DNA from: an uncultured Actinomycetes bacterium
GTDB taxonomy: Bacteria > Actinomycetota > Thermoleophilia > Gaiellales > JALYLC01
Assembly (NCBI GenBank): GCA_963743275.1
Contig: CAVUPB010000001.1
Span: forward strand, 7,776-71,775
Direction: 5' to 3'
DNA length: 64,000 nt
The notes under the pieces are model-generated. The model did no database searches. It was given only the letters and a program-made list of their open reading frames with translations, and was not told the origin of the DNA. Below, piece after piece: positions 3,983 to 55,229 of this stretch (position 1 is its first letter; each line of letters opens with the position of its first letter). A program made the position numbers and the translations under genes.

Positions 3983-6897
3983 GCCTCCGCCGCCTCGAAG
4001 AGCGCCTGTCGCGCGGCCAAGCGCGCGACGCTCGCGCGCGGCGAGACGTTCTACCCGGGCCCGAGCCGCGTGCACCTCGCGGCCTTCCCGCCCAAGGAGC
4101 GCTGGGACGACTGGGTCGAGCTCGACTCGCGCGCCTGGCCGCACGCGAGCGGCACTACGTGCTCGTGCCGACCACCTGCTTCAACTGCGAGTCCGCCTGC
4201 GGGCTGCTCGCCTACGTCGATCGCGAGACGCTGACGGTGCGCAAGTTCGAGGGCAACCCCGAGCACCCGGGCTCGCGCGGGCGCAACTGCGCCAAGGGCC
4301 CGGCGACGATCAACCAGGTCACCGACCCCGACCGCATCCTCTACCCGCTGCGGCGCGCGGGCGCGCGCGGCGAGGGCCGCTGGGAGCGCGTGTCGTGGGA
4401 CGAGGCGCTCGACGACATCGCGCGCGCGCATCCGCCGCGCGATCACCGAGGCGCGCCCGAACGAGGTCATGTACCACGTCGGCCGCCCCGGCGAGGACGG
4501 CTTCACCGAGCGCGTGCTCGCGGCCTGGGGCGTCGACGGGCACAACTCGCACACGAACATCTGCTCCTCGGGCGGGCGCGCCGGCTACCACTGGTGGATG
4601 GGCCTCGACCGGCCGAGCCCCGACCACGCCAACGCCGACGTGATCCTGCTCATCAGCTGCGCACCTCGAGTCGGGCCACTACTTCAACCCGCACGCGCAG
4701 CGGATCATCGAGGCCCGCGAGCGCGGCGCCAAGCTGATCGTGCTCGACACCCGGCTCTCGAACACGGCGACGAAGGCCGACCACTGGCTCGCGCCCGTGC
4801 CGGGCTCGCGAGGCCGCGATGCTGCTCGCGATCGCGAGCCACCTCATCCGCAGCGGCCGCTACGACCGCGAGTTCGTGCGCCGCTGGTGGAACTGGCAGG
4901 AGTACCTCGCAGCACGAGCACCCCGGCGGGCCGCAGACGTTCGAGGAGTTCGAGCGCGTGCTCGCCGATCTGTACGCGCAGTACACGTTCGAGTTCGCCG
5001 AGCGGGAGTCCGGCATCGCGGCCGCGGTGCTGCGCGAGGTCGCGGACGTGATCGCCTCGGCCGGCACGCGGCTCTCCTCGCACGTCTGGCGCATCGGCGT
5101 CGGCCGGCAACCTCGGCGGCTGGCAGGTCGCGCGCACGCTCTTCCTGCTGAACGCGCTGCTCGGCGCCGTCGCGGTCGAGGGCGGCACCTACCCGAACGC
5201 GTGGAACAAGTTCGTGCCGAAGCCGATGTACCTGCCCGCGCCACCCGCCGCAGTGGAACGAGCTGACCTGGCCCGAGGAGTACCCGCTCGCGATGAACGA
5301 GATGTCGTTCCTGCTGCCGCACCTGCTCAAGGAGGGCGGCGGGCCGCTCGACGTCTACTTCACGCGCGTCTACAACCCCGTGTGGACGAACCCGGACGGC
5401 TTCTCGTGGATCGAGGCGCTCACGGACGAGGCGCTCGTCGGCCTGCACGTGGCGCTGACGCCGACCTGGAGCGAGACCGCGTTCTTGGCCGACTACGTGC
5501 TGCCGATGGGCCACAGCTCGGAGCGGCACGACATCCACTCCTACGAGCAGTACGACGGCCAGTGGATCGGCTTCCGCCAGCCCGTGCTGCGCGCCGCGCG
5601 CGAGCGGCTCGGCGAGACCATCCGCGACACGCGCGAGGTCAACCCGGGCGAGGTCTGGGAGGAGAACGAGTTCTGGATCGAGCTCTCCTGGCGCATCGAC
5701 CCGGACGGCTCGCTCGGCATCCGCCGCTTCTTCGAGTCGCAAGGAGCGGCCGGGCGAGAAGCTCGGCGTCGACGAGTACTACGCCTGGATCTTCGAGCAC
5801 TCCGTTCCCGGGCTGCCCGAGCGCGCGGCCGCCGAGGGCTTGACCCCGCTCGCGTGGATGCGCCGCTACGGCGCGTTCGAGGTGACGCGCGGCGTCGGGC
5901 CGCTGCACGAGCAGCCCGTGCCCGACGCGGAGCTCGAGGACGTCGCGACGGGCGAGCACGGCCGCGTCTACTCGCGCGCGCCGAAGCCCGACTCGCCCAA
6001 CGTCGTGCCGATGCCGACGCCCGAGCCCGACGCGGACGGCCGGCGGCCGGTCGGCGTCGAGGTCGACGGCGCGGTGCTGCGCGGCTTGCCGACGCCGAGC
6101 GGCCGGCTCGAGTTCTACTCGCGCACGCTCGCCGAGTGGGGCTGGCCCGAGGCGGCGGTGCCGACGTACATCCGCAGCCACGTCCATCCCGACAACCTCG
6201 AGCCGGGCCAGATGCCGTCCTGATCGCGACGTTCCGCCTGCCGGTCCAGATCCACACGCGCTCCGCGAACGCGAAATGGCTCGACGAGATCGCCCACACG
6301 AACCCGCTGTGGCTGCACCCGCGCGACGCCGAGCGCATCGGCGTGCGCACCGGCGACCTCGTGCGGGTCGAGACCGAGATCGGCCACTTCGTCGTCAAGG
6401 CGTGGGTGACCGAGGGCATCCGCCCCGGCGTCGTCGCCTGCAGCCACCACATGGGGCGCTGGAAGCCCGAGGGCCAGACCGGCGGCCAGCGCCAGTCGAT
6501 GGCGACCGTCGCGCTCGAGCACGCGGGCAGCGACTGGACGATCCGCCGCCGCGCCGGGGTCGCGCCGTTCGCATCGTCCGACCCGGACACGAAGCGGATC
6601 TGGTGGACCGACGTCGGCGTGCACCAGAACCTCGCGTTCCCCGTCCACCCCGACCCCGTCTCGGGCATGCACTGCTGGCACCAGGCCGTGCACGTGCGCA
6701 AGGCCGGCCCGGGCGACGCCTACGGCGACATCGCCGTCGACACCGCCGCCTCGCGCGCGGTCTACGAGCGCTGGCTCGCCGAGACACGGCCGGCGCGGGC
6801 GACCTCGCCCGACGGGACGCGCCGGCCCTACTGGCTGCTGCGCCCGCTCAAGCCCGGCAAGGACGTCTACCGGCTGCCCGCGCAGCGCGACGCCTGA
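3979..6897 (+). pseudogene. Molybdopterin (bis-MGD) oxidoreductase catalytic subunit, no obvious Tat signal; about 10 frame changes
   Basis: Conserved blocks are spread over all three + frames: MSLRRLEERLS / KRATLARGETFYPGPSRVHLAAFPPKERWDDWVELDSRAWP / ERHYVLVPTTCFNCESACGLLAYVD...NCAKGPATINQ / IRRAITEARPNEVMYHVGRPGEDG...ADVILLIS / HLESGHYFNPHAQRIIEARERGAKLIVLDTRLSNTATKADHWLAPVPGS / EAAMLLAIASHLIRSGRYDREFVRRWWNWQEYL / QHEHPGGPQTFEEF... / GNLGGWQVARTLFLLNALLG...KPMYLPAPP / QWNELTWPEEYPLAMNEMSFLL...IRRFFES / KERPGEKLGVDEYYAWIF...EPGQMP / VLIATFRLPVQIHTRSANAKWLDEIAHTNPLWLHPRDA...*. Switches lie at roughly 4013, 4140, 4425, 4658, 4808, 4908, 5096, 5255, 5745 and 6215. Confidence 0.8.
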
Positions 6898-24374: not shown

Positions 24375-24677
24375 TCAGCGGCCGAGCAGGCCGGGATTGC
24401 GCCCGGCGAACTCGTCGAACTCCGTGACGCCCGGTGCGCGCTCGATCGCCGCCTGGATGCGGGCGCACCAGGCGCGCGTCAGCGCGAGGTCGAACTTCCC
24501 GGGCACGCCGGCGGCCCGCGTGACCGCTCGCAGCCCCTCCGCCATGCGCTCGGCCCCCGCCTCGGCGCCGTCGCGGCGGAGGCACAGCCACGCGACCCTG
24601 ACGTGCGCCCGGTGGTCGAAGTCCGCGACCGGGAGCGTTCCCGCGGCGAATGCCGCGAGCAGGTCGTCGTCGCTCAT
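24375..24677 (-). CDS. Conserved hypothetical protein (about 100 aa) co-transcribed with MarR
   Basis: ATG 24677 overlaps the MarR stop (ATGA): MSDDDLLAAFAAGTLPVADFDHRAHVRVAWLCLRRDG... Good GC3 bias. No family recognised. Confidence 0.5.
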   Translation of the reverse strand: MSDDDLLAAFAAGTLPVADFDHRAHVRVAWLCLRRDGAEAGAERMAEGLRAVTRAAGVPGKFDLALTRAWCARIQAAIERAPGVTEFDEFAGRNPGLLGR

Positions 24678-25081
24678 CGGGCGTCGCCGCCCGGCGGGAA
24701 GCGAGCGAGCGCCGCGCGCAGCGCCTCCACGTCCCGCGCCGCGAGCGCGCCCTCGAGCGAGCCCATCGCGCGCAGCACGCGATCGCGCGCGGCCTCGCCG
24801 TCGGGGGTGAGCACGGCCAGGACGGCGCGGCGATCCGCGGCGTCGGGCCGGCGTTCGAGCAGCCCGCGCTCGGCGAGCCGGTCGAGGACGCCGGTGAGCG
24901 TGGACGGGCGCTGCCCCGTCGCACGGACGAGCGCGCCGACCCGCGAGGACCGCTCGCTCCCGAAGCATCCGAGCGCGTTGACCTCGGCCGCGCTGAGGCC
25001 GCTGTCGCCGAGCGCGGCGTCCAGCGCGGCGAGCGCGCGGTGCGTGGCGCGCTCGAGCGCGAGTACGAGAGGCTCATTCAT
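24674..25081 (-). CDS. MarR-family transcriptional regulator
   Basis: ORF 24674..25081: LSAAEVNALGCFGSERSSRVGALVRATGQRPSTLTGVLDRLAERGLLERRPDAADRRAVLAVLTPDG (wHTH). Confidence 0.9.
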   Translation of the reverse strand: MNEPLVLALERATHRALAALDAALGDSGLSAAEVNALGCFGSERSSRVGALVRATGQRPSTLTGVLDRLAERGLLERRPDAADRRAVLAVLTPDGEAARDRVLRAMGSLEGALAARDVEALRAALARFPPGGDAR

Positions 25082-25110
25082 ACGGATCCGTATTATACGG
25101 ATCCGTATTA
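25081..25110. promoter_or_regulatory. Two tandem copies of TACGGATCCGTATTA, each holding the perfect 12-bp palindrome TACGGATCCGTA (putative MarR operators)
   Basis: Read directly: 25081-25095 and 25096-25110. They lie in the 55-bp divergent spacer between marR (start 25081) and the deiodinase-like gene (25137). Confidence 0.5.
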
Positions 25111-25136: not shown

Positions 25137-25754
25137 GTGGCTGCCCAGGAACCGGACACGCCCGGCGACTCGCCGCTGAGGATGGCCGACGTCCTCGCGT
25201 CGCCGTTCTACCGCGACCTCATGACGCCGGAGCTCGCCGCCGGCGAGCCCGCCGCCCCGTTTGCGCTGCCGAGGCCCGACGGCACGATCGTGCGCCTGGC
25301 CGACTTCGCCGGAGTCTCACCGGTCGCTCTGGCCTTCGGCTCCTACACCTGACCGCCCTTCCGCGCCCAGTTGGGCGCGCTGTCGCGGCTGCACCGGACG
25401 TACGGCGACCGGGTGGCGTTCTTCATCGTCTACATCCGCGAGGCGCATCCCGAGGACGGCTGGGTCCTGGCGGACAACCGCGAGGCCGGCGTGCGCATCG
25501 AGGACCCGCGTTCGGAGGGCGAGCGCCAGGGCGTCGCCGAAACGTGCGCGACGCTCTTCTCGCTCGAGATCCCGGTGCTCGTCGACGGCATCGGGGACGA
25601 GGTCGCGCGCACCTACGGCGGTTGGCCGGAGCGGCTCTATCTGATCGACGCGGACGGCGCCATCGCCTACCAGGGCGAGGAGGGGCCGTTCGGATTCCAC
25701 CCCGAGGAGCTCGAGGCGGCGATCGAGAGCGAGCTGGGCATCCGCCGGCGTTAG
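25137..25754 (+). CDS. Iodothyronine-deiodinase-like thioredoxin-fold protein; candidate selenoprotein (in-frame TGA 25350-25352 read as Sec)
   Basis: Track ORFs 25137..25352 and 25371..25754 share one frame and are split only by the TGA. Read-through gives VALAFGSYT-U-PPFRAQLGALSRLHRTYGDRVAFFIVYIREAHPEDGW. This has the same spacing as my recollection of the deiodinase active-site region (FGSCT-U-PSF ... 23 aa ... [12 protein letters not shown]). GC3 bias continues across the TGA. Confidence 0.7.
25362..25379 (+). promoter_or_regulatory. SECIS-like hairpin just downstream of the in-frame UGA
   Basis: CGCGCCC-AGUU-GGGCGCG: 7-bp GC stem with an apical loop containing G-U. It starts 10 nt after the UGA. 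Consistent with bacterial SECIS geometry, but not scored with any model. Confidence 0.45.
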
Positions 25755-26179
25755 GCCGCCGGCGGCGGAATCGCTCCGACCTGGATCAGCAGCGAGAGGA
25801 AGTCGGCGACCGACCAGCGCTCGGCGCAGCGCTCGCCCGCGAAGCGCAGGATCGTGATGCCCGGGACGTCGACCGGCAGGCCCGTGGGCGGGACGCCCAT
25901 GAACGCGCCGTCGTGGGTGCCGAGGAAGCGGAAGCCGAGCGTCAGGCGATCGCCGTCGACGAGCGCCTGCTCGACGGTCACGCGCGCGTCGGAGAAGCCC
26001 TCGAAGATCGCGCGGTAGAACTCCTTGACCGTCGCCTTGGGCGTGAGCGGCTCGGGCGTGTAGCCGTGCAGCACGACGTCGTCGTGGTAGAGCATCTCGA
26101 AGTAGTCGTCGCGGCGCGCCGGGTCGTTGAAGGCGGCGATGGCCTTCTCGGCGGTCGCGATCATCTCCTCGCGCGTCAT
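25751..26179 (-). CDS. SnoaL-like / ester-cyclase (NTF2-fold) protein
   Basis: ORF 25751..26179: AIAAFNDPARRDDYFEMLYHDDVVLHGY...KEFYRAIFEGFSDARVTVEQ...HDGAFMGVPPTG. Confidence 0.75.
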   Translation of the reverse strand: MTREEMIATAEKAIAAFNDPARRDDYFEMLYHDDVVLHGYTPEPLTPKATVKEFYRAIFEGFSDARVTVEQALVDGDRLTLGFRFLGTHDGAFMGVPPTGLPVDVPGITILRFAGERCAERWSVADFLSLLIQVGAIPPPAA

Positions 26180-53878: not shown

Positions 53879-53957
53879 CGCAAAGTTGGGGTCAGACCCC
53901 AACGTTGCGTGCGCATCGCGACGACGGTGCACGGTTGGGGTCTGACCCCAATCGTGC
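53879..53957. repeat. Two related palindromic (REP-like) hairpin units
   Basis: CGCAAAGTTGGGGTC-A-GACCCCAACGTTGCG (53879-53909) and GCACGGTTGGGGTC-T-GACCCCAATCGTGC (53929-53957). Shared core TTGGGGTC-N-GACCCCAA. Confidence 0.6.
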
Positions 53958-53972
53958 AGGCATGATTCGGCC

Positions 53973-54923
53973 GTGGCCGCCGCCGTCGACCTCGTCATCC
54001 CGAACCTCGACGGCGAGGCGCTCCTGGGCGCGTGCCTCGAGGGCGTCGCCGCCCAGACGCTGCAGCCGGTGCGCGTGCTCGTGATCGACAGCGGCTCGCG
54101 CGACGGCTCGCGCGCGATCACCGAGGCCCACGGCGCCGAATGGCACGCGCTGGCGGCCAACAACGGCTTCGCGGCCGCCGTCAATCACGGGATCGCGATC
54201 TCCGACAGCCCCTACGTGGCGTTGCTCAACAACGACGCCGTGCCCGAGCCGGGCTGGCTCGCCGCCCTGGTCGAGGCGCTCGAGCGCGACCCCGGGCTGT
54301 CCTTCGCGGCCTCGCGCATGCTCTTCACGGGCGAGCGCGGCGTCAACGCCGCGGGCGACGCCTTCGACGTGCGCGGCCGCGGCGGCTACAACCGCGGCAT
54401 CCGCGAGCCCGACGGCCCGCGCTTCGACGAGCCCCGCATCGTCTTCGGCGCCTGTGCCGGCGCCGCGCTCTACCGCCGCGCGCTGTTTCACGACATCGGC
54501 CTCTTCGACGAGAGCCTGTTCCTGTCGTGGGAGGACGTCGATCTCGACCTCCGCGCCGCTCTGGCGGGCCACCGCTGCCTGTACGTGCCCGATGCGGTCG
54601 TTCACCACGCGCAGGGCGCGTCGTCGGGCGACTGGCGCGCGGCGCTCGAGCGGCGCAACAAGGCCATCCTGGCGCTCAAGGGCCTGCCCTTGCCGCTGCT
54701 CGCGCTCTACCTCGCACTCCTGCCGGCGCGCGAGGCCTACGAGACGCGCGCGGCCCGGGAGGGCGTGCGGGGCTACCTGCGGCGCCTGGCCCCCTACGCA
54801 CGCGAAGCGCCGCGGGCGCTGCGCCGCCGCGGCGAGGTGCACCGGCGCACCGGCCTGCGCGAGCTGTGGCCGCTGCTCACGCGCGATTCGCTGCCGTACG
54901 AGCCTCGGCAGCGCTCGCGCTGA
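53973..54923 (+). CDS. Glycosyltransferase family 2
   Basis: ORF 53973..54923 (GTG): VDLVIPNLDGEALLGACLEGVAAQT...VLVIDSGSRDGS...NNGFAAAVNHGI...LLNNDAV...WEDVDLDLR. Confidence 0.85.
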   Translation: MAAAVDLVIPNLDGEALLGACLEGVAAQTLQPVRVLVIDSGSRDGSRAITEAHGAEWHALAANNGFAAAVNHGIAISDSPYVALLNNDAVPEPGWLAALVEALERDPGLSFAASRMLFTGERGVNAAGDAFDVRGRGGYNRGIREPDGPRFDEPRIVFGACAGAALYRRALFHDIGLFDESLFLSWEDVDLDLRAALAGHRCLYVPDAVVHHAQGASSGDWRAALERRNKAILALKGLPLPLLALYLALLPAREAYETRAAREGVRGYLRRLAPYAREAPRALRRRGEVHRRTGLRELWPLLTRDSLPYEPRQRSR

Positions 54924-54956
54924 TCCGCCCGCCGTGCCGATACGATCCGGTCGCCG

Positions 54957-55229
54957 ATGACGACTTCGACCGACGAGCACCGGCGTCTCCTGGCTGAGGC
55001 GCTCGCGCGAGCCGACAGCGATATCGCCGAGTTGCGCGTCCGCGTCGCCGAGGGCGAACGGGTGGCCGCTGAGCTCACGACCGTGCAACGCCAGCTGGCC
55101 GTGTGCCGCGCAGAGTGCGCGCAGCTCCAGGTCGACCTCAGCGGAGTCATGGGCTCGTTGAGCTGGCGCGCCACGGCTCCGATCCGGTTCGCCGCGGCGC
55201 GGGCGCGCATGCTTCGGCGGGGCGGTTGA
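54957..55229 (+). CDS. Small coiled-coil protein with C-terminal S-W-R-x-T-x-P-I-R motif
   Basis: ORF 54957..55229: heptad-like LAEALARADSDIAELRVRVAEGERVAAELTTVQRQLAV..., then SLSWRATAPIRF. Its stop overlaps the next gene's TTG (TTGA). Confidence 0.5.
   Translation: MTTSTDEHRRLLAEALARADSDIAELRVRVAEGERVAAELTTVQRQLAVCRAECAQLQVDLSGVMGSLSWRATAPIRFAAARARMLRRGG

Follow-up and report, generated by a model that had tools for sequence, protein, structure and literature searches.

A 64-kb stretch of DNA from an uncultured actinomycete of the order Gaiellales (class Thermoleophilia; contig CAVUPB010000001.1), referred to here in its full length as the window, contains at 25137-25754 on the forward strand two consecutive open reading frames (ORFs) that together resemble a deiodinase, and the question raised by this locus is whether the TGA codon between them terminates a gene or encodes selenocysteine (Sec). 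An earlier note on this DNA had proposed that the two ORFs are one frame split by the TGA. The stretch is indeed a single 205-codon frame in which TGA 25350-25352 is the sole internal stop, the sequence around it being ALAFGSYT-*-PPFRAQLGALSRLHRTYGDRVAFFIVYIREAHPEDGW, and from which a mechanical ORF listing produces a 71-aa ORF and a 127-aa ORF. The elements on which the argument rests are the following:

25137..25754, forward strand: deiodinase-like selenoprotein gene, with a GTG start, 204 residues of which Sec is residue 72, and a TAG stop at 25752-25754.
25350..25352, forward strand: predicted UGA Sec codon (Sec72), in the motif G-S-Y-T-U-P-P-F-R.
25362..25379, forward strand: apical hairpin of a putative bacterial selenocysteine insertion sequence (SECIS), with a 7-bp G-C stem and an AGUU loop, the G of which is at +21 relative to the U of the UGA.
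25545..25547, forward strand: codon of Cys137, the only Cys of the protein, 65 residues past Sec and a candidate resolving ('distal') cysteine.

The position of the GTG start is occupied by ATG in the close relatives L074-L076. Across the TGA, the G+C content of third codon positions (GC3) goes from 0.89 on the 5' side to 0.95 on the 3' side in a window of 73% GC, which agrees with the earlier description of a codon bias that does not change across the stop. Only the 127-aa fragment after the TGA (P0001) represents this protein in public records.

In order to follow the codon across relatives, we searched one genome per GTDB species and obtained 67 loci, mainly from metagenome-assembled genomes of Gaiellaceae, Gaiellales and Thermoleophilia, together with Chloroflexota, Myxococcota, Pseudomonadales and other Gammaproteobacteria, Planctomycetota, Eisenbacteria, Bacillota and more, covering six or more phyla. 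Of these, 65 have TGA at the equivalent codon, within G-S-Y-T-*-P-P-F, the remaining two loci (L061 and L064) being divergent Cys forms; the TGA is likewise kept in L074-L076. Such an alignment had been suggested as a check of codon 25350-25352, and a 71-aa product alone, combined with loss of the downstream frame in relatives, had been named as an outcome that would speak against a selenoprotein. The window protein is 55% identical to its relatives upstream of the TGA and 58% identical downstream of it, and this equality indicates that both halves are under the same selection. Among 1480 database homologues, approximately 100 of the top 120 are fragments of ~125 aa that start just past the TGA, a pattern which is the usual gene-caller artefact of selenoprotein genes; as called in the databases, these downstream fragments range from 120 to 149 aa, and no conserved start is evident. 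The full-length database homologues carry Cys (11 sequences), 'W' (3 sequences: P0015, P0017 and P0101) or Ser (2 sequences) at the Sec position, and in the one 'W' homologue for which the DNA was checked, L070 (1291-1293), the codon is TGA. The family is systematically mis-annotated: most calls cut the gene into pieces of ~71 aa and ~125 aa, and some translate the Sec TGA as Trp.

The read-through protein, searched with Cys in place of the stop, matches the Pfam family T4_deiodinase (PF00837), the model proposed for this search in the earlier note, with E=1.4e-31 and 110.1 bits (cutoff 27) over residues 34-197, a match that spans the TGA. AhpC-TSA (37.7 bits) and Redoxin (28.4 bits) are also above their Pfam cutoffs but far under PF00837, and the canonical PxxxTxxC spacing of a peroxiredoxin-type active site is not evident in the sequence. 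The best NCBIfam match, NF038285 'deiodinase_rel', reaches 194.9 bits, below its cutoff of 250 bits, at positions 178-340 of 347; the match covers the catalytic domain, and the N-terminal half of the model is missing here. A phmmer search against PDB sequences retrieved the catalytic core of mouse Dio3 (4TR3, E=1.7e-25) and mouse Dio2 (9H48, E=4e-20). Both align without gaps from FGSxT[U]PPF through YIxEAHPxDGW and place the TGA on the catalytic Sec (Cys in the crystallised mutants), which upholds the claims that the TGA sits at the catalytic position of deiodinases and that its distance to the YI.EAH..DGW block is identical. The AlphaFold model of the Cys-form homologue P0002, which is 58% identical to the window protein (predicted local distance difference test score 86.9), has Dio2 (template modelling score, TM, 0.80) and Dio3 (TM 0.79) as its top PDB folds, followed by ResA/TlpA thioredoxins and the 1-Cys peroxiredoxin AhpE. 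Residues 1-60 of the window protein, as read from its sequence, are polar and Pro-rich and contain no hydrophobic segment, and the N-terminal region of the P0002 model is of low confidence or helical. Sequence matches and model together support a soluble protein of ~22 kDa with a thioredoxin/peroxiredoxin-type fold that belongs to the bacterial deiodinase-like selenoprotein family.

Bacterial SECIS elements have been described as stem-loops lying downstream of the UGA whose apical loop is small and holds a G (PMC1088965). The hairpin in the window (CGCGCCC-AGUU-GGGCGCG, that is, GCGCCC-AGUU-GGGCGC plus an outer C-G pair) is part of the minimum-free-energy fold. The 7-bp stem and AGUU loop reported earlier at 25362-25379 are present as stated; the distance needs correction, since the stem begins 9 nt after the UGA, at the tenth nucleotide, and not ten nt after it. 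Within the window gene the 30-nt stretch has a folding energy of -14.8 kcal/mol, where the rest of the gene averages -8.2 per stretch, and ranks in the top 4.9%. Across the family, the 30 nt starting 9 nt past the U of the UGA average -11.1 kcal/mol versus -7.4 kcal/mol in segments taken elsewhere from these genes (p=3e-12 by paired Wilcoxon test, a value that overstates independence as the sequences are related). The Sec-form genes align without gaps across 48 nt beginning at the UGA (alignment A1), and in this alignment the stem formed by columns 14-19 and 25-30 (loop AGUUR) shows a covariation score of 0.304 compared to 0.132 for shuffles; none of 500 reaches this score, 44 cells are changed on both sides of the stem, and the stem outscores every slid register. 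When the register is left free, 57 of the 59 distinct sequences contain a stem of 5 bp or more without interruption that begins 9-23 nt past the U of the UGA, and a G within the small apical loop is likewise present in 57 of 59. In Planctomycete-type and related members the UGA is followed by codons for another peptide, yet these members form an 8-bp stem with a GGUC loop, and a C-to-U change in the hairpin of L074 keeps the pair as G-U. The claim of a SECIS-like hairpin at the expected place is therefore borne out by the family data, and we regard the hairpin at 25362-25379 as a putative SECIS, its match to the published bacterial features being supported by comparative sequence data. With Rfam, the window had no hit at gathering thresholds, and permissive thresholds brought up nothing relevant at 25250-25500; to our knowledge, Rfam does not contain any bacterial SECIS family.

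A known element of comparable form is the SECIS of Escherichia coli fdhF, likewise a stem-loop within the ORF that begins ~10 nt past the UGA and carries G-U in its small apical loop. In fdhF the loop nucleotides G23/U24 lie 2 nt further from the UGA than the loop in the window, and E. coli SelB needs a bulged U; the window hairpin, unlike that of fdhF, is a perfect 7-bp stem without bulge. Deiodinases of vertebrates (DIO1-3) use a SECIS in the 3' untranslated region (3'UTR) together with SBP2/eEFSec, whereas the element in the window lies inside the ORF and would be SelB-dependent; a eukaryotic-type 3'UTR SECIS was not found, as no Rfam SECIS model matches anywhere in the window. In the main Gaiellaceae group (for example L001 and L006) two competing hairpins are possible after the UGA, one formed by CCAGUU/AGCUGG with loop GGGCG and the other longer, with a bulged A and an interrupted stem capped by loop AGUUG.

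A number of observations weigh against Sec decoding and against the hairpin as its signal. The 81-nt region around the hairpin folds no better than dinucleotide shuffles (z=-0.9) in this 73% GC DNA, so that the hairpin cannot be judged from this one sequence and its support comes from the comparative data. The stem register varies between clades: the 4-nt-loop register of the window is used by a subset, and its family-wide covariation is weak. A fixed-register analysis on the 7-bp register of the window was accordingly discarded, the 5-nt-loop register doing better across the family. The hairpin is also kept in two of five Cys-form genes examined (L071 and L072) and absent from the other three (L068, L069 and L073). 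In view of this mixed outcome the Cys forms were given up as an unambiguous negative control, and some of the hairpin may be due to coding constraints or be a fossil SECIS. At least one other gene in the assembly is riddled with frameshifts, which points to imperfect base-level quality. Finally, neither the 64-kb window nor ~640 kb of related loci yielded selA, selB, selD or tRNA-Sec: searches for tRNA-Sec gave none in the window and 60 loci, and tblastn with E. coli SelA, SelB and SelD (query sequences not drawn from a database record) returned nothing in the screened DNA. This negative says little, because only 64 kb of a multi-megabase genome are covered. The earlier view that Sec usage is uncommon in high-GC Actinomycetota-like genomes is not shared by the literature, in which Actinobacteria rank among the three phyla richest in selenoprotein families (PMC1794560).

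The Cys-form hairpins themselves lie at 589-636 of L071 and 345-392 of L072, where a TGT or TGC codon is followed at the same place by a SECIS-like hairpin with an AGUU(G) loop. They would fit the view that Sec was converted to Cys recently and that a fossil SECIS stayed behind, and remnant SECIS elements have been reported in Cys forms derived from Sec forms (PMC1794560).

Three readings would dispense with Sec at this position. If the TGA were a sequencing or assembly error, or an inactivating mutation in a Cys-type gene or pseudogene, the existence of Cys-form homologues would be readily accommodated, and the molybdopterin oxidoreductase gene in the same window, with its ~8 frame changes, does indicate either an error-prone assembly or gene decay. 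The errors elsewhere in the window are, however, indels and not substitutions, the frame of the gene is intact over its whole length with equal conservation on either side of the stop, and TGA stands at the very same codon in 65 of the 67 genomes, which are independent of one another, as well as in L074-L076; we give this reading almost no credence. The annotation as two separate genes, a 71-aa peptide ending at TGA 25352 and a 127-aa protein starting from TTG 25371, is what gene callers produce, and the TTG is present. It is nonetheless very improbable, since the motif G-S-x-T-[U/C]-P-P-F spans the stop and forms part of one continuous domain in the Cys forms and in the Dio structures, the TTG lies inside the hairpin, the called downstream fragments show no evident common start, and the downstream fragment alone would be a thioredoxin fold deprived of strand beta1 and of its active-site residue.

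The UGA might also be read through as Trp, Cys or Gly, by an alternative code or near-cognate suppression, in line with the 'W' that some pipelines place here and with the absence of Sec machinery from the sequence searched. About every second coding-like ORF of the window stops at a TGA, however, and as a regular stop this codon excludes alternative genetic codes (codes 4 and 25) and makes the recoding local. The position is redox-active, Cys in homologues and Sec in the animal enzymes, such that Trp or Gly would kill catalysis; a conserved G-loop hairpin follows the codon; and three independent surveys class the family as Sec-containing (PMC1088965, PMC2398784, PMC13188914). Read-through as another amino acid is in our estimate improbable. 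The comparative sequence evidence thus strongly argues that 25137-25754 is one gene with a genuine Sec codon, and not an error, a pseudogene or two separate genes. In mechanistic terms, UGA 25350-25352 would be decoded as Sec, with the hairpin 9 nt downstream, within the coding sequence, acting as a bacterial SECIS that, by the established scheme of bacterial Sec insertion, would recruit SelB and Sec-tRNA(Sec) to the ribosome.

To gain a view of the active site, conservation was measured across 72 family sequences. Nearly invariant are Ser69, Thr71, Sec72, Pro73, Pro74, Phe75, Arg76, Tyr99, Glu102, Ala103, His104, Gly108, Trp109, Arg166 and Cys137 (99%). Ser, Thr, Tyr, Glu and His correspond to the proposed proton relay and loop-D edge of deiodinases (PMC11592359), and of the relay and loop-D residues the window protein retains a part, namely Ser69, Thr71, Tyr99, Glu102, His104 and Trp109. 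All DIO1-3 isoenzymes carry a distal Cys 69-76 residues past Sec (PMC9141512). The likeness to DIO1-3 comprises the catalytic fold, the S-x-T-U-P-P-F motif (around Sec72 as in vertebrate DIO2 and DIO3) and the spacing to the Y-I-x-E-A-H-P-x-D-G-W block, and the relay Ser, Thr, Tyr, Glu and His, the loop-D Trp and the distal Cys are all found in the window protein. Other deiodinase residues are lost: the proximal Cys of DIO1/DIO3 is replaced by Tyr70 (97%), Dio3 His219 by Pro124 (99%), and the Dio3 substrate clamp Arg275 (Lys241 in Dio2) by Glu182 in the window, at a position that is variable in the family and where Arg is not the consensus. DIO1-3 have an N-terminal membrane anchor, which the window protein does not. 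The active site reads U-P-P-F in all 65 Sec-form genes, with no Cys at +3 and hence no CxxC or UxxC motif. The 1-Cys and atypical 2-Cys peroxiredoxins (Mycobacterium tuberculosis AhpE, for example) and the ResA/TlpA thiol-disulfide oxidoreductases are built on the same thioredoxin-fold scaffold, in which helix alpha1 bears the nucleophile at its N-terminus; the window protein differs from them by its Sec nucleophile, a deiodinase-type loop-D insertion and the absence of CxxC.

These residues suggest a catalytic cycle in which the selenolate of Sec72 would attack an electrophile, either a halogen on an aromatic ring (deiodinase-like) or a peroxide oxygen (peroxiredoxin/glutathione peroxidase-like). 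The resulting Se-X or Se-OH intermediate would be resolved by the invariant distal Cys137 to a selenenyl-sulfide, which a cellular thiol system would re-reduce to regenerate the enzyme. By analogy with these enzymes we infer that the protein may function as a thiol-recycled Sec reductase, as a dehalogenase or a peroxidase, and would give the two chemistries roughly equal weight: halogen-bond or dehalogenation-type chemistry, acting on small phenolics, is favoured by those deiodinase-specific residues that are kept, and the peroxiredoxin-like scaffold together with the generic redox role proposed in 2005 favours a peroxidase or reductase. Thyroid hormones are not expected as substrates, given that the protein has neither the clamp Arg275 nor the relay His219 of Dio3, and no membrane anchor.

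That the protein is a plain thiol-disulfide oxidoreductase or peroxiredoxin, without any dehalogenase-type chemistry and with a resemblance to deiodinases that reflects only ancestry, is a serious contender, falling somewhat short of an even chance. It would account for the AhpC-TSA and Redoxin scores above cutoff, for ResA/TlpA and AhpE as next-best structural matches and for the missing Dio3 Arg275 and His219, and it is close to the generic redox role put forward by the 2005 authors (PMC1088965). Harder to explain by a generic thioredoxin function are the E-A-H-P-x-D-G-W loop-D edges and the Ser/Thr/Tyr/Glu relay, which are nearly invariant across phyla, and the protein has neither a CxxC nor a UxxC motif.

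Upstream and downstream of the gene lie the following features:

24674..25081, reverse strand: MarR-family regulator of 135 aa, divergent to the selenoprotein gene, matching Pfam MarR_2 and MarR.
25080-25093 and 25095-25108, no strand assigned: two tandem perfect 14-nt palindromes ATACGGATCCGTAT, found by pattern search and presumed to be MarR operators.
25751-26179, reverse strand: SnoaL-like gene (polyketide-cyclase fold), convergent with the selenoprotein gene and overlapping its end by 4 nt.

Of the two palindrome copies, set at a spacing of 15 nt, the first shares nucleotides with the start codon of the MarR gene. A MarR gene is found at the same position in L074 (an 87% relative) and L076 (82%), with one perfect and one degenerate palindrome at the same place (~5690-5720 in L074, ~3690-3716 in L076); L075 has neither an adjacent MarR gene nor a copy of the palindrome. 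L074 and L075, on two contigs, share the downstream fragment P0009 without any difference and are almost alike over the full protein, yet have different upstream contexts, a MarR gene and an ATP-binding cassette (ABC) transporter in L074 and Hpt and response regulator/guanylate cyclase genes in L075, and their sequences diverge upstream of a conserved promoter-proximal stretch. A tblastn search with the MarR and SnoaL-like proteins found no match in 73 more distant loci, and with MarR recurring only in L074 and L076 the two were rejected as conserved partners of the gene. Clustering of neighbouring genes as a source of partners was likewise given up, as it returned only local Gaiellaceae synteny and much noise from high-GC ORFs. 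The divergent pairing with a MarR regulator and its operators, as described earlier, is thus present in the window, but it is limited to close relatives and is not a feature of the family.

From this gene arrangement we propose that the divergent MarR regulator, acting on the two palindromic operators, controls expression in this organism and its closest relatives. Control of the gene through the presumed operators is probable, and by its distribution this predicted control is a lineage-specific add-on. We know of no previous description of a bacterial deiodinase-like selenoprotein coupled to MarR; the ligand of the adjacent regulator could reveal the substrate of the enzyme and offers an experimental handle on its function. 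The SnoaL-like gene, which sits between the selenoprotein gene and a large FG-GAP/ASPIC gene, is missing in the syntenic L074 and therefore looks like a recent insertion.

Elsewhere in the window, a Psr/Nrf-like molybdopterin oxidoreductase cluster occupies 4150-6897 on the forward strand, with Fer4_11 and NrfD parts from ~2608. Its domains are Fer4_11, NrfD, Molybdop_Fe4S4 and Molydop_binding, and the best frame of the catalytic subunit changes ~8 times, as a result of either assembly indel errors or decay of a pseudogene. A TGA at 4735 was considered as the Sec codon of a second selenoprotein, a Sec-type formate dehydrogenase, and rejected, as it lies in an out-of-frame stretch of this gene with its ~8 frame changes; Sec at the Mo-ligand position was also rejected, as this position reads Cys (HTNICSSGG). 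A family-2 glycosyltransferase ORF at 53946-55226 on the forward strand stops at TGA 54921-54923, after which the same frame stays open for 101 codons with a coding-like GC3 of 0.85 and partially overlaps the next gene; this open stretch is probably due to chance in high-GC DNA.

The bacterial 'deiodinase-like protein' family of selenoproteins was described from the Sargasso Sea in 2005, with Sec and Cys forms, a bacterial SECIS and a proposed generic redox role (PMC1088965). It was found again in the 2008 Global Ocean Sampling (GOS) data with 22 Sec sequences (PMC2398784) and is listed in reviews of 2022 (PMC9312934) and 2026 (PMC13188914). The novelty implied by the earlier note was therefore overrated. 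The window gene shares with the published family PF00837, the UGA at the redox-active position, Sec and Cys forms, the G-loop hairpin and the presumed redox role. It differs in origin, the published members coming from marine metagenomes and the window gene and most of its relatives from soil-type Gaiellales/Thermoleophilia-like genomes (73% GC), and in its motif, which both reviews give as UxxC (PMC9312934, PMC13188914; the GOS table in PMC2398784 lists none) and which in this clade is U-P-P-F with a distal Cys 65 residues on. The locus is thus a well-supported but ordinary member of a known family that has been mis-split in public annotation, and the findings will not surprise a selenoprotein specialist. 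Taken as a whole, the combination of one gene, a Sec-decoded UGA, a SECIS hairpin, the proposed active site and cycle, and MarR control is in our judgement very probable.

Recognition of the locus as one gene corrects split public records, as it would for about a hundred relatives, and adds one selenoprotein to a high-GC Thermoleophilia-like genome. What the analysis adds to the family is how broadly the Sec form occurs among Gaiellales-type genomes of soil, the U-P-P-F motif with its distal Cys, the pattern of retained and lost deiodinase residues, which for this clade argues against thyronine substrates, and the MarR/operator module; the Sec form is widespread in soil Gaiellaceae, beyond marine plankton.

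A bolder and rather unlikely proposal is that this clade, which is abundant in soil Gaiellales, represents a cytoplasmic, Sec-dependent reductive dehalogenase that removes iodine or bromine from natural halogenated phenolics through the halogen-bond mechanism of deiodinases, is recycled through Cys137 and, in the lineage of the window, is induced by a phenolic-sensing MarR regulator. If true, this would constitute a thiol-driven, corrinoid-independent route of dehalogenation in aerobic soil bacteria, and possibly the ancestral activity behind the thyroid-hormone deiodinases of animals.

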